A program made the translations under genes and the position numbers. DNA of 64,000 nt from Myxococcota bacterium (GTDB lineage: Bacteria > Myxococcota_A > UBA9160 > JAFDDA01). The notes beneath the pieces are model-generated. The model was not told where the DNA came from. It worked only from the letters and a program-made list of their open reading frames with translations, and made no database searches. The stretch spans positions 2,144,001 through 2,208,000 of the forward strand of contig OZ245817.1 in NCBI GenBank assembly GCA_965228475.1, given 5' to 3'. Within the stretch, counting starts at the first letter, position 1; each line of letters starts with the position of its first letter. This document shows positions 17,268 to 57,039 of the stretch, one piece after another.

Positions 17268-17295
17268 TCATCGACGGGGCTCGCCGGCGAATTTA
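17268..17295 (-). promoter_or_regulatory. Candidate sigma-28 promoter for romR
   Basis: Minus strand TAAA-N16-GTCGATGA. Confidence 0.5.
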
Positions 17296-17346
17296 ACGGT
17301 TTTTGCGCGCTCCTGAGCGGCTCTTGCCGGGGGCGGGCCGGCCGCG

Positions 17347-17374
17347 TCAAGTCACGCAAGTGCGCGGCCGATGG
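17347..17374 (+). promoter_or_regulatory. Candidate sigma-28 promoter for the PP2C phosphatase
   Basis: TCAA(GT)-N16-GCCGATGG, ending 18 nt before the ATG. Confidence 0.55.
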
Positions 17375-17392
17375 ACTCTTCAGGAGCTCCTC

Positions 17393-18124
17393 ATGCGTTT
17401 CGAAACCGCCGCGATTTCCGACGTAGGCCGCCGGCGACAAGCCAACGAGGACCGCTACGCCCTCGATCCGGATCTGGGGCTTTTCCTGGTGGCGGACGGC
17501 ATGGGCGGGCACCGGGCCGGCCGGACCGCGAGCGAGCTGGCGAGCGCCGCCGTCCTGGCCGCCATCCATACGCTCCAGGACGCGCCCGCGAGCCTCGCCG
17601 AGCGGCTGCGCTACGCCGTTTCCGCCGCCAATCGCGAGATCTTCTCCATGGCCGCCGAGCAGGCCGAGCTCGCCGGGATGGGAACCACCCTGGTCGTCCT
17701 GCTGGCGGGCGACGAGCGGGTCAGCCTGGCCCACGTCGGCGACAGCCGCGCCTACCTCGTGCGGGCCGGCGGGATCCGCCAGCTCACCGACGACCACAGC
17801 CTCGTGGCCGAGCTCCTGCGCCGCCAGAAGATCACCGCGGACGATGCCCGCGAGCACCCCCATCGACACGTTCTCACGCGCGCCCTCGGCGTGCGCCCGA
17901 GCGTCGAGCCGGATCTCGCCGAGATGACGCCCCTCGACGGCGACGTCTTCGTGCTCTGCTCCGACGGCCTGACGAACCACCTGCAGGACACCGAGATCGC
18001 GAAGATCGTGAGCTCGACGTCGGTGCTGGAAGATGCGGCACGTGCGTTGGTGGAGTGTGCGAATTCACGAGGTGGAGAGGACAACATCACGGTCGTCCTC
18101 GTCCGGTCCCGGTCTCAAGACTGA
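17393..18124 (+). CDS. PP2C-family Ser/Thr protein phosphatase (Stp1/PrpC-like)
   Basis: SDVGRRRQANED, VADGMGGH, MGTT, HVGDSRAY, LCSDGL and GGEDNIT. AGGAG RBS. Confidence 0.93.
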   Translation: MRFETAAISDVGRRRQANEDRYALDPDLGLFLVADGMGGHRAGRTASELASAAVLAAIHTLQDAPASLAERLRYAVSAANREIFSMAAEQAELAGMGTTLVVLLAGDERVSLAHVGDSRAYLVRAGGIRQLTDDHSLVAELLRRQKITADDAREHPHRHVLTRALGVRPSVEPDLAEMTPLDGDVFVLCSDGLTNHLQDTEIAKIVSSTSVLEDAARALVECANSRGGEDNITVVLVRSRSQD

Positions 18125-18256
18125 GCGCCGCGCGCTCGGGCAGGTGGGCCTTCCGGCTCATGGCTCGCCCGGCTAGCACTCATCGCACGGGTACGACTTG
18201 GTAGTCCCGGGCTGCGCTTTACTTCCCCGGAAGGCCCACCTGCCCGAGCACGCTCC
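18125..18256 (+). repeat. Structured intergenic element, copy 1 (23-bp perfect stem, conserved internal motifs)
   Basis: 18134-18156 is the perfect reverse complement of 18227-18249. Contains TCCGGCTCATGGCTCGCCC and GGGCTGCGCTTTACTTC. Confidence 0.85.
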
Positions 18257-54030: not shown

Positions 54031-55415
54031 GCGATTCAGTGCGCGTACTCGTCGTGGACGACGAGCGCAGCATGCAGGAATTCCTGGAGATCTTCTTGCG
54101 CCGGGAGGGGCACGAGGTCGTGGCCGTCGGCGACATCGATGCGGCCGTGATGGCGCTCGAGTCGGACGAGTTCGACGTCGTGATCAGCGATCTGAAGCTC
54201 GGCGACCGCTCGGGGATCGAAGTCCTGCGGGCCGGACGCGAGCTCGCCCCGGAAGCCGTCTTCCTGATGATCACCGCCTACGCGACCACGGACACCGCCG
54301 TCGAAGCGATGCGCGAGGGCGCGTACGACTACGTGACGAAGCCGTTCAAGGTCGACGAGCTTCGCATGACGATGGAGAAGGCGCTCGAGAAGCAGCTCCT
54401 CCAGACCGAGAACCAGCGCCTTCGCAGCGAACTCCGCAGCCGGAGCCGCGACCGGACCCTCGTGGGCAACAGCCCCGCCATGCAGCGGGTGTACGACCTG
54501 GTCGACCAGGTGGCGCAGACGAAGACGAACGTCCTGGTCTGCGGCGAGAGCGGAACGGGCAAGGAGCTGATCGCCCGGGCCGTCCACGAGCGAAGCCCGC
54601 GCAGCGAGAAACCGTTCGTCGCGATCAACTGCGGCGCCATCCCCGAGAACCTGCTCGAGTCCGAGCTCTTCGGGCACGTGAAGGGCGCCTTCACGGGCGC
54701 CGTCCAGAACAAGGCGGGCCTGTTCGAGGCGGCGGAGAAGGGCACCCTCTTCCTCGACGAGATCGGCGAGCTCTCGGGTGCGCTCCAGGTGAAGCTGCTG
54801 CGTGCCATCCAGGAGAAGCGCATCCGCCGCGTGGGCGGGACGAGCGACGAAGCGGTCGACGTGCGCATCGTCGCCGCCACGAACCAGGACCTCGAGACGA
54901 TGATCGCGGAGAACCGGTTCCGGGAAGACCTCTACTACCGCCTGAACGTCATCCAACTGACCCTGCCGCCGCTCCGGGAGCGCGTCGAGGACGTCCCGCT
55001 CCTCGTGCGGCACTTCATCGAGAAGTTCTCCCGGGAGCTCGACCGCCCGGTGGAAGGGATCGACCCGGGCGCGCTCGACCGCCTCATGGCCTATCCGTTC
55101 CCCGGGAACGTCCGCGAGCTCGAGAACGTGATCGAGCGGGCGGTGACGCTGACGCGCGGCCCGACCATCGGCGCGGACTCCTTCCCGCCGAGCGTGCTAC
55201 GGCCGAGCACGAGCCCGCCGGTTTCCCGCATTCCGACCGAGGGTGTGGATCTCGATCGTCTGCTCGCCGAGTACGAGAAGGGGCTCCTCTGCGAGGCGCT
55301 CGAGCAGGCGGGCGGCGTGAAGAAGCGCGCGGCGGTGCTGCTCGGCATCTCCTTCCGATCCTTCCGCTACCGCCTCGAGAAGCTGAACCTCGAGACCCCC
55401 GACTCCGAAGGCTAG
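54027..55415 (+). CDS. pilR: Sigma-54 response regulator PilR
   Basis: Receiver, GAFTGA and the C-terminal GISFRSFRYRL typical of PilR. Confidence 0.9.
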   Translation: MSDSVRVLVVDDERSMQEFLEIFLRREGHEVVAVGDIDAAVMALESDEFDVVISDLKLGDRSGIEVLRAGRELAPEAVFLMITAYATTDTAVEAMREGAYDYVTKPFKVDELRMTMEKALEKQLLQTENQRLRSELRSRSRDRTLVGNSPAMQRVYDLVDQVAQTKTNVLVCGESGTGKELIARAVHERSPRSEKPFVAINCGAIPENLLESELFGHVKGAFTGAVQNKAGLFEAAEKGTLFLDEIGELSGALQVKLLRAIQEKRIRRVGGTSDEAVDVRIVAATNQDLETMIAENRFREDLYYRLNVIQLTLPPLRERVEDVPLLVRHFIEKFSRELDRPVEGIDPGALDRLMAYPFPGNVRELENVIERAVTLTRGPTIGADSFPPSVLRPSTSPPVSRIPTEGVDLDRLLAEYEKGLLCEALEQAGGVKKRAAVLLGISFRSFRYRLEKLNLETPDSEG

Positions 55416-55447
55416 ACCCGGTGCGAGGGCCGCGCCCCGTGCGAGGG

Positions 55448-56950
55448 ATGGCGCCCGTGGCCAAGCGGACGGGCCTCCAGGCAGAGGTACTGGTGAGCCT
55501 GGCGCTGGTGATGCTGGCGGCGACCGGCCTGCTGGCCCTGGTCGTTCGAAGCTACGACGAGGGCCGCGTCCGCGAGGTCGTCGGCCGCGCGCTCCAGGCC
55601 GAGGCCCGGAACCCCGCCGGTCCGGACCGGGCGCTCTATCCGGGAACGGTCTGGTGGCGGGTCGATTCGGCCGGCGTGGCCCAGAGCTACGGTCCCGTCA
55701 CCGATCGCATCGACGACGTCTCGCGCCAGCTCGCCGCGGAAGCGAGCGCGCGGCGCGCGACCGTCCTGCGCCCCGGCTACCCGTGGGAGTCCATCCGCTT
55801 CGCCACGGCGTTCGAGGACGGCTCGGTCGCGGTCGCGCGGTTGCCGGTCGAAGCCTCGACCCACCTTCGTGCGGTCCCGATGAACCTCCTCGCCGGCCTG
55901 CTGGCCCTGGACGCCGCCGTGTTCACGGCCTTCGGCGTGTTCCTGCTTCGGCGAAGGGTCGTACTGCCGCTCCAGCGCGTCGGAGAAGCCGCCCGGGCGC
56001 TCGCGGCGGGCGACCTGCGGGTCCGGGTGCCCGAAGAGGGGGCGCGGGAGGCGGGCGAACTCGCGCGGCACTTCAACGAGATGGGCGAGGCGCTCGAGGC
56101 GCGGACGGAAGCGCTCGAGAAGGCGGTGGCGGACCTGCGCTCGGCGAACCACGAGCTCAGCGAGACCCGCGAAGGGCTCGATCGCGCCCAGCGGCTCGCC
56201 TCCGTCGGGCACCTGGCCGCCGGGGTGGCTCACGAGGTCGGCAACCCGATCGGGGCGATGCTCGCCTTCGTGGATCTCGCCGGCCGCGACCCGGGCCTCG
56301 GGGAGGAAGCGCGCGCGCACCTCGCGCGCGCGTCGGAACAGGGCTCACGGGTCCGCGTGATCCTGCGCCAGCTGCTCGACCTCTCGCGGCCGCCCGAGGG
56401 GCGGATCGAGCCGGTCGACCTTCGCGTCTGTGCCGAACAGGCGGCGGGTCTGGTCCGCGCGCAGGCTCCGTATCGCAAGCTCGCGATCGAGGTCCGCCAG
56501 GAGGAGGAGGCCCCGCCGGCGCTCGCGGACGCCGGCGTCGTCGGTCAGATCCTCCTGAACCTGCTGCTGAACGCCGGAGACGAGCTGCGCGAGCGGGGCT
56601 CCGGACGCATCGAGGTTTCCATCGAGCCCGCCGTGGGCCGTGTTCGCGCAGGGGAGGACCCGGCGACGGCCCGGCCCCGCAACCCGGCCGATGCCGTCGC
56701 GGTGACGGTCTCGGACGACGGCCCGGGCATCGCGGAAGACGACCGCAGTCGGGTCTTCGACCCCTTCTTCACGACCAAGGACCCGGGGGAGGGGACGGGT
56801 CTCGGCCTCGCCACGGTGCAGCGCCTCGTCGAGACCCTGGCCGGCCGGGTCGACCTCGTTTCACCCGGCCCGCTCGGCGGCGCGTCGTTCCGCGTCACGC
56901 TCCCGGCGGCATCGGCAGCTCCTGCGCAGGCAGTGCGCGCGAGCGGGTGA
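55448..56950 (+). CDS. HAMP-domain sensor histidine kinase (PilS2-like) with no adjacent cognate regulator
   Basis: Two TM segments, HAMP, AHEVGNP and FDPFFTTKDPGEGTGLGL. Confidence 0.85.
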   Translation: MAPVAKRTGLQAEVLVSLALVMLAATGLLALVVRSYDEGRVREVVGRALQAEARNPAGPDRALYPGTVWWRVDSAGVAQSYGPVTDRIDDVSRQLAAEASARRATVLRPGYPWESIRFATAFEDGSVAVARLPVEASTHLRAVPMNLLAGLLALDAAVFTAFGVFLLRRRVVLPLQRVGEAARALAAGDLRVRVPEEGAREAGELARHFNEMGEALEARTEALEKAVADLRSANHELSETREGLDRAQRLASVGHLAAGVAHEVGNPIGAMLAFVDLAGRDPGLGEEARAHLARASEQGSRVRVILRQLLDLSRPPEGRIEPVDLRVCAEQAAGLVRAQAPYRKLAIEVRQEEEAPPALADAGVVGQILLNLLLNAGDELRERGSGRIEVSIEPAVGRVRAGEDPATARPRNPADAVAVTVSDDGPGIAEDDRSRVFDPFFTTKDPGEGTGLGLATVQRLVETLAGRVDLVSPGPLGGASFRVTLPAASAAPAQAVRASG

Positions 56951-57011
56951 AACGCCTTGCGTAGCTGCGCAAGGTCTTGCGCGGCTCCGGTCCGGCGCCT
57001 GAATCGAAAAA

Positions 57012-57039
57012 TCAAGGGAATCAGCGGGTTGGCCGAACG
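57012..57039 (+). promoter_or_regulatory. Candidate sigma-28 promoter for the minor-pilin operon
   Basis: TCAA(G)-N16-GCCGAACG. Confidence 0.45.

Follow-up and report, generated by a model that had tools for sequence, protein, structure and literature searches.

The present analysis concerns FliA, a sigma-28 family factor encoded in the window, a 64,000-nucleotide (nt) stretch (positions 2144001-2208000) of a 5.0-Mb single-contig Myxococcota genome (G000, 70% GC, 96% complete). The gene has probably moved out of the flagellar cluster, and its product appears to be a globally acting regulator of a motile cell state throughout the class UBA9160, a reading to which we assign a probability of roughly 0.78. 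Sigma-28 factors normally switch on only the last flagellar genes. A first-pass annotation of the window had proposed an orphan sigma-28 factor controlling type IV pilus and polarity genes rather than flagella.

Sigma-28-type promoter boxes in the window and the genome

The first-pass annotation had located four boxes with an N16 spacing, and their coordinates, sequence, strand and 16-nt spacer are all as it described, each box pointing into its gene. The matrix used to score them was trained without the genes of the window. Counts of loci refer to the fliA loci of the 80 closest relatives, and loci ending early were left out of the box counts. The fliA region is organized as follows:

15511..17220, minus strand: romR-like polarity response regulator, 569 amino acids (aa), composed of a receiver, a linker rich in Ala, Pro and Asp, and a short C-terminal region that is Glu-rich and contains Trp and Pro
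17268..17295, minus strand: predicted sigma-28-type promoter of romR, TAAA-N16-GTCGATGA, 16.3 bits; predicted start near 17260
17347..17374, plus strand: predicted sigma-28-type promoter of the PP2C gene, TCAA-N16-GCCGATGG, 18.9 bits; predicted start near 17382
17393..18124, plus strand: PP2C-type Ser/Thr phosphatase, convergent with fliA (NF033484, 266.7 bits, cut-off 230; 71 of 80 loci)
18125..18463, no strand: palindromic, partly repeated intergenic element between the PP2C gene and fliA
18464..19228, minus strand: fliA, sigma-28 family factor, 254 aa (TIGR02479 FliA_WhiG, 278.2 bits, cut-off 189.6)
19324..19338, minus strand: predicted sigma-54 (-24/-12) site lying 110 nt upstream of fliA (shared by 78 of 79 relatives, in two of them on the opposite strand)
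19594..20970, minus strand: gene for an NtrC-type sigma-54 activator, lying upstream of fliA and with an approximate start (adjacent to fliA in 73 of 80 loci)
21158..23226, plus strand: two genes transcribed divergently from the activator, for a histidine kinase (54 of 80 loci) and a single-domain response regulator (49 of 80), many of the loci being incomplete

The pilus region contains the other two boxes:

48046..48073, plus strand: predicted sigma-28-type promoter of the pilB-pilT-pilC operon, 17.9 bits; predicted start near 48081
48180..52288, plus strand: pilB, pilT and pilC, type IVa pilus motor and platform (pilB passes TIGR02538, pilT passes TIGR01420)
52366..56950, plus strand: a kinase and a sigma-54 activator of the pilS/pilR type (so named from their position), and another kinase
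57012..57039, plus strand: predicted sigma-28-type promoter of the minor-pilin operon (fimU), 15.0 bits; predicted start near 57047
57048..57062, plus strand: predicted sigma-54 site at fimU, its first base 36 nt after the TCAAG, right where sigma-28 transcription is predicted to start
57085..63253, plus strand: operon fimU-pilV-pilW-pilX-pilY1 for minor pilins and an adhesin (pilX so called from its position only)

The four boxes belong to a promoter class that extends over the whole genome, for which 4389 genes were called by ourselves, all gene starts resting on these calls. Across 2694 upstream regions, a spacing of k = 16 gives 88 occurrences of the pattern T[AC]AA-Nk-NCCGA, as compared to 20 at k = 15 and 2-13 at the 12 other spacings; on the antisense strand of tandem intergenic regions, k = 16 gives five. 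The matrix converges on TCAAG-N15-GCCGAT. The enrichment over background on which the annotation had made its proposal depend is borne out by the matrix scan, since 214 of the 2694 regions reach at least 12 bits, as compared to 14-25 in six shifted-spacing controls, from which about 190 of the promoters are estimated to be real. As a separate observation, the antisense strand of tandem intergenic regions has 23 occurrences of TCAA-N15-NCCGA, only one of them with TCAAG; this is probably a repeated element.

The sites carry a signature at their predicted starts. In 11 of 49 strict sites the -10 octamer is followed, at a distance of exactly 7 nt, by an ATG (controls: 0/4 at N12, 0/11 at N18), 27 of the 214 sites end exactly 7 nt before a called start codon, versus 7 of 513 control matches, and a purine stands at +7 in 127 of 166 other sites. 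For predicted promoters, such a +7 signature is what is expected of leaderless and normal start sites.

That the boxes are not promoters at all, but chance matches, a codon-frame artefact or the -35 boxes of opposite-strand sigma-70 promoters, is hardly credible. The strict pattern does fit common codons in coding DNA, and a corresponding background is seen in FliA-less genomes of other classes. However, the excess is intergenic, sense-oriented and spacing-specific, it comes with the start-site signature and with positional conservation, and 116 of the 214 sites sit between tandem genes (the same share as among all regions), where an opposite-strand promoter is not expected. A reversed-pattern control was too weak owing to this in-frame codon fit, FliA-less genomes of other classes exceeding it too, and it was replaced by a frame-matched control with an 18-nt spacer. 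Conclusions on the regulon are confined to the class UBA9160. The boxes are thus supported as enriched, oriented and conserved putative promoters of the sigma-28 type.

Conservation and target genes

The conservation in relatives that the annotation had anticipated is found for the window boxes. The romR box scores at least 12 bits in 50 of 56 relatives, 48 of them with TCAAT (controls 0-2), and the PP2C box does so in 57 of 67 (controls 0-4). The pilB box is present in 55 of 56 relatives (28/29, 20/20 with five genomes common to the first set, and 12/12), the lone miss falling at a contig end. The pilB promoter is, as predicted from these counts, the fixed core of the regulon, the rest being variable. 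The minor-pilin operon follows the pil operon in 7 of 20 relatives, where fimU has the box in 6/7 and the sigma-54 site in 7/7, with a box-to-sigma-54 offset of 35-36 nt in 6/7; predicted sigma-28 and sigma-54 promoters thus lie in tandem at fimU. Weaker boxes near the noise level, not listed by the annotation, also occur in the window before a GGDEF-like gene (3087-5357, 11.0 bits), anmK (29454-30602, 12.2 bits) and a phosphomutase gene (38908-40257, 13.0 bits).

The survey of the class covers 121 genomes, 98 from the order of the window genome and 23 from its sister order. FliA matches occur in 114 of them (110 above the cut-off), PilB in 108 and FlgI in 48. As many as 67 of the 114 FliA-positive genomes have no FlgI match, and four small genomes are without FliA, PilB and FlgI together. 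Relative to its frame-matched control, the strict motif shows at least a twofold excess in 40 of the 47 FliA genomes that are flagellated and in 53 of the 67 that have no FlgI match. The four genomes without FliA and PilB all stay below this level.

Boxes of at least 14 bits precede 165 genes of the window genome; 160 of these were scanned against Pfam, the other five having been identified already, and their functions were tallied by hand. About 26 of these best targets are PilZ, GGDEF, EAL, HD-GYP or HDOD proteins, 7 are pilus genes or operons, 5 concern polarity or the cytoskeleton (romR, mglB, mreB, divIVA and a bactofilin gene) and 3 are flagellar; the remainder comprises many two-component genes along with genes for the envelope, proteases, metabolism or unknown functions. 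When only genes that have an upstream region to themselves are counted, a box precedes 14 of 18 PilZ, 10 of 13 GGDEF and 4 of 5 HDOD genes, 3 of 5 flagellin genes and 2 of 4 pilin genes (overall 214/2694). Genes inside operons are excluded from these class counts (PilZ 2, GGDEF 4, HDOD 1, flagellin 0, pilin 7, plus one uncalled pilin). PilZ and GGDEF genes are the strongest target classes.

Boxes are also found before three further pilT genes, before mglBA and, with 19.2 bits, before the small gene heading the pilMNOPQ operon (mglBA and pilM being named from sequence and position). The latter gene, just past the window at 2210566-2210829, encodes a probable helix-turn-helix protein of 87 aa with no Pfam match at E<=1e-7. 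The major pilin gene (pilA, likewise named from sequence and position) has a sigma-54 site and a weak box of 10.1 bits. In addition, a Pup-ligase gene (PF03136, E 8e-153) at 675258-676664 of the contig has a 14.5-bit box.

These targets bear on the annotation's proposal that the sigma factor was co-opted for type IVa pili and polarity. The part concerning pili and polarity stands, as pilB, fimU, the three pilT genes, romR and mglBA all have boxes, while the specificity does not, since pilus and polarity genes make up only about 12 of the 165 best targets compared with the roughly 26 related to cyclic di-GMP (c-di-GMP) or HDOD. The strict form of this idea, a factor devoted to type IVa pili and polarity that no longer touches flagella, is quite unlikely. 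It is consistent with the pilB box being the most invariant element, with FliA and PilB being missing together in four genomes and with the sigma-54 sites at the rod genes and the cluster flagellin. It conflicts with the size of the predicted regulon (about 190 promoters), with the boxes at three of five flagellins, motA and a flagellar regulator operon, and with the sigma-54 site at the major pilin.

FliA-RNA polymerase presumably reads the TCAAG-N15-GCCGAT sites. We also considered that the promoters are real but read mainly by another sigma factor, or with the help of an extra activator, FliA being a bystander or partial reader. The window genome has five other group 1-3 sigma genes, the -35 box is mostly TCAAG as compared to the enteric TAAAG, and three genomes show a motif excess with no FliA match. 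Nevertheless, this is unlikely: the other sigmas score 83-109 bits, far below the FliA cut-off; the best-conserved site, that of pilB, is in relatives mostly TAAAG...GCCGATAA; the motif excess vanishes in the four genomes without FliA and PilB; and the geometry is the same as that of Bdellovibrio FliA, which was shown to activate such promoters in E. coli (PMC5430801).

Several points weigh against a FliA regulon of global extent. The promoters and their reading by FliA are predicted from sequence, and the gene starts in the window genome come from in-house calling. A search for RNA sequencing runs containing positions 15500-19400 of the window listed none. The relatives compared share descent and hence are not independent samples; moreover, the genomes are incomplete metagenome assemblies, in which a gene that is not seen is not proven absent. 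An excess of the strict motif below twofold is found in 21 of the 114 FliA-positive genomes; pilB retains an intact box in the 12 of these that were inspected. Genus g20 yielded no romR box in any of five readable loci and no PP2C match, while the pilB box stays. These losses, together with the low-excess genomes, imply that the size of the regulon varies. Three genomes (G045, G087 and G112) show the motif excess without a FliA match, which may be due to assembly gaps. Finally, in the window genome a 13.6-bit box and a sigma-54 site both precede the cluster flagellin, so that the inverted hierarchy described below is less clear-cut.

The sigma factor gene, its control and the flagella

The assignment of the open reading frame at 18464-19228 to the FliA/WhiG family, made by the annotation, is upheld by TIGR02479 and also by NF005413 (255.4 bits, cut-off 201). 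It is the sole match above the family cut-off in the whole window genome, its identity across the 80 closest relatives is 79-91%, and its best solved relative is the WhiG-type chain 6PFV (E 7e-69). The gene order activator-fliA / PP2C / romR is kept in the 80 fliA loci. The romR-like product has the receiver, unstructured linker and Glu-rich C-terminal region with Trp and Pro of RomR and co-occurs with MglA/MglB, in agreement with the layout that PMC3441718 describes.

The annotation had found no flagellar gene in the window, and none was identified among its 51 proteins scanned against NCBIfam (E<=1e-8). As to the rest of the genome, which it had left as a check, a full flagellar cluster is present at 1.706-1.763 Mb (Pfam), 0.4 Mb from the window, and FlgM was not detected. 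There are six Flagellin_N matches, representing five flagellins and FlgL, as well as FlhA, rod proteins, CsrA and FliW. The words "rather than flagella" are therefore not supported: the genome is flagellated, and boxes precede three of the five flagellins (13.6-15.8 bits), motA and the flagellar regulator operon. Of the two motAB pairs in the cluster (1706434-1708017 and 1730427-1732098), the first has a 14.7-bit box, conserved in a weaker form in relatives. A box also precedes the operon that encodes the flagellar sigma-54 activator and FliL, reaching at least 12 bits in 6 of the 8 genomes compared within the order and at least 9 bits in 8/8 (controls 0-2 matches at 9 bits; G095 is not covered by this count).

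The detachment of the sigma factor from flagella, another element of the annotation, is sustained. In the window genome an HDOD gene follows flhG in place of fliA, and flgJ abuts flgN with no flgM between. None of the 80 fliA loci matched flhA, flhF, flhG or flgF queries, and fliA was not found in the flagellar-cluster stretches of 10 relatives. FlgM (PF04316) is found in 0 of 98 genomes of the order and in 22 of 23 of the sister order, and a profile of 13 sister-order FlgMs gives a best E of 2.2 in the window genome (control 4e-29). With FliA kept in 67 of the 114 FliA-positive genomes without FlgI and no FlgM in the order, flagella alone do not explain the sigma factor.

An ordinary late flagellar sigma whose gene was merely relocated, with the non-flagellar boxes as a small accessory regulon or noise, is strongly disfavoured. 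Such a factor would be compatible with the complete flagellar cluster and five flagellins of the window genome, and with fliA being under sigma-54, as predicted for Geobacter (PMC2725144). However, genomes that lack FlgI keep FliA at about 80% identity and show the enriched motif; a search of the 98 genomes of the order turned up no FlgM; in 8/8 relatives the cluster flagellin is preceded by a sigma-54 site, with no box exceeding 8.9 bits; and flagellar genes are only 3 of the 165 best targets, so that a full flagellar regulon, which the annotation had named as an outcome that would refute it, does not account for the sigma.

Several ways of controlling FliA were considered. A divergent FlgM in the gap between fliA and the PP2C gene is rejected, 62 of 69 gaps being shorter than 240 nt and the profile giving nothing better than E 0.05 in 127 loci. 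The RsiG motif E-X3-S-X2-R-X3-[QH]-X3-D, taken from PMC8325347, has no match in the 4389 called proteins, and Gly61 of WhiG (sigma region 2.1), needed to fit c-di-GMP according to PMC7005675, aligns with Asn in this FliA; RsiG-type control is rejected on both grounds. A PP2C-based partner switch on FliA found no support from the tests, and genus g20 keeps fliA without a PP2C match. Autoregulation by an upstream box is rejected for the order, with no box of at least 12 bits upstream of fliA in 79 relatives or upstream of the activator in 65; it is present in genus g53 of the sister order (3/3), where fliA was relocated and gained its own sigma-28 box and flgM stayed behind.

Control of FliA would instead be transcriptional, as the upstream site suggests. 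In the mechanism that we propose, fliA would be switched on by sigma-54 with the neighbouring NtrC-type activator, whose candidate role follows from its position, the adjacent histidine kinase and response regulator being its candidate input. FliA would not be held by FlgM and hence would be uncoupled from hook completion, and FliA-RNA polymerase would read about 190 promoters for pili, polarity, c-di-GMP and two-component genes, motA and flagellins. In flagellated members, FliA would further turn on the flagellar sigma-54 activator operon and thereby the rod genes and main flagellin, with CsrA-FliW as a likely flagellin checkpoint. The sigma-54 sites fit this scheme, being present at flgF in 6 of 8 relatives and, in the window genome, at flgF, flgB and two flagellins. 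The predicted sites suggest an order of sigma-54, then FliA, then the flagellar activator and sigma-54 again, which inverts the flagellar hierarchy.

A bolder reading is tentative and, in our judgement, has odds somewhat below even. In that case, FliA might be, throughout the order, the top-level, FlgM-free switch of a distinct motile or dispersal state resembling the attack phase of Bdellovibrio, placed between two sigma-54 tiers and above the flagellar activator and resetting pili, polarity and nearly the whole c-di-GMP network, which would point to an unrecognised two-phase life cycle.

In the sister order, family f11 (L294, L298-L303, L306-L308, L041-L045) has a short FlgM-like protein of about 60-90 aa between fliA and the PP2C gene, mostly the C-terminal sigma-binding part. 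It also occurs in genomes without a FlgI match and so may not be removed by flagellar export. The palindromic element at 18125-18463 of the window lies in the same place as this short flgM; it consists of two long palindromes with common internal segments, part of which is found in about 12 genome copies, and resembles a repetitive extragenic palindrome or a miniature inverted-repeat transposable element. The sister-order clusters L285 and L291 have a strong box (18.5 and 19.9 bits) before the flgJ-flgN-flgK operon, unlike the order of the window genome.

Comparison with known systems

The closest likeness is to Bdellovibrio bacteriovorus, whose attack-phase FliA regulon, according to PMC3627812, has the motif TTAAG-N16-CCGATA in 92 of 140 mapped promoters. 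In both cases FliA is, or here appears to be, a global regulator with equal motif geometry. The Bdellovibrio targets include flagellar, surface and Tad pilus genes, the Tad pilus promoters having been shown to respond to FliA (PMC3627812, PMC5430801). A regulon of the same order, at least 100 mostly non-flagellar promoters, is found here (214 regions; 3 flagellar genes among the 165 best targets). The differences are that boxes here extend to the operon of the type IVa pilus motor, to romR and mglBA and to most c-di-GMP genes, that the sigma factor is kept in genomes without flagella, and that the cluster flagellin has a sigma-54 site, whereas the Bdellovibrio flagellin promoters respond to FliA. 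A global FliA regulon is thus of a known kind.

Sigma-28-family control of type IV pilus and c-di-GMP enzyme genes is described for WhiG of Rubrobacter radiotolerans and the WhiG-like sigmas of Actinoplanes (PMC8325347, PMC12871210, PMC7005675), and these two target groups are what the systems have in common with the present one. Here, unlike there, the RsiG motif is missing, Asn replaces Gly61, the phylum is another one, a sigma-54 site lies upstream and the regulon is much larger.

Geobacter sulfurreducens represents the canonical flagellar cascade from sigma-54 to FliA/FlgM (PMC2725144). The present genome resembles it in having fliA under a predicted sigma-54 promoter, pilA under sigma-54, and the cluster order flhA-flhF-flhG ... 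flgF-flgG-flgA, flgJ ... flgN-flgK-flgL-csrA. Two of the slots are, however, empty here, that for fliA after flhG and that for flgM between flgJ and flgN, and a box stands before the flagellar activator operon, the cluster flagellin having none above 8.9 bits in relatives. The predicted protein falls within the sigma-28 family and belongs neither to the canonical FliA/FlgM type, with fliA in the cluster and FlgM, nor to the WhiG-RsiG type.

No published description of a FliA regulon in Myxococcota or UBA9160, and no publication linking FliA to pilB, romR or mglBA in myxobacteria, was found in a literature search that left out most subscription journals. Myxococcus has a motility sigma factor, SigF. 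The present results would give a first map of regulation in a Myxococcota class that is widespread but uncultured, and a candidate sigma factor would be named for the pilB, romR and mglBA genes of a Myxococcus relative. They also outline a possible route of rewiring of a flagellar sigma, in which the gene would have moved beside romR, captured pilus, polarity and c-di-GMP genes and handed the flagellin to sigma-54, with the anti-sigma factor lost in one order and shrunk in the sister order as part of the process.

Two further features of the window may be mentioned. A 343-aa protein (5541-6572) resembles by eye an MglA-type small GTPase at its N-terminus, with no family match at the thresholds used. 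The open reading frame at 37728-38810 matches both an RsmD methyltransferase and a CoaD adenylyltransferase above their cut-offs, an apparent fusion.

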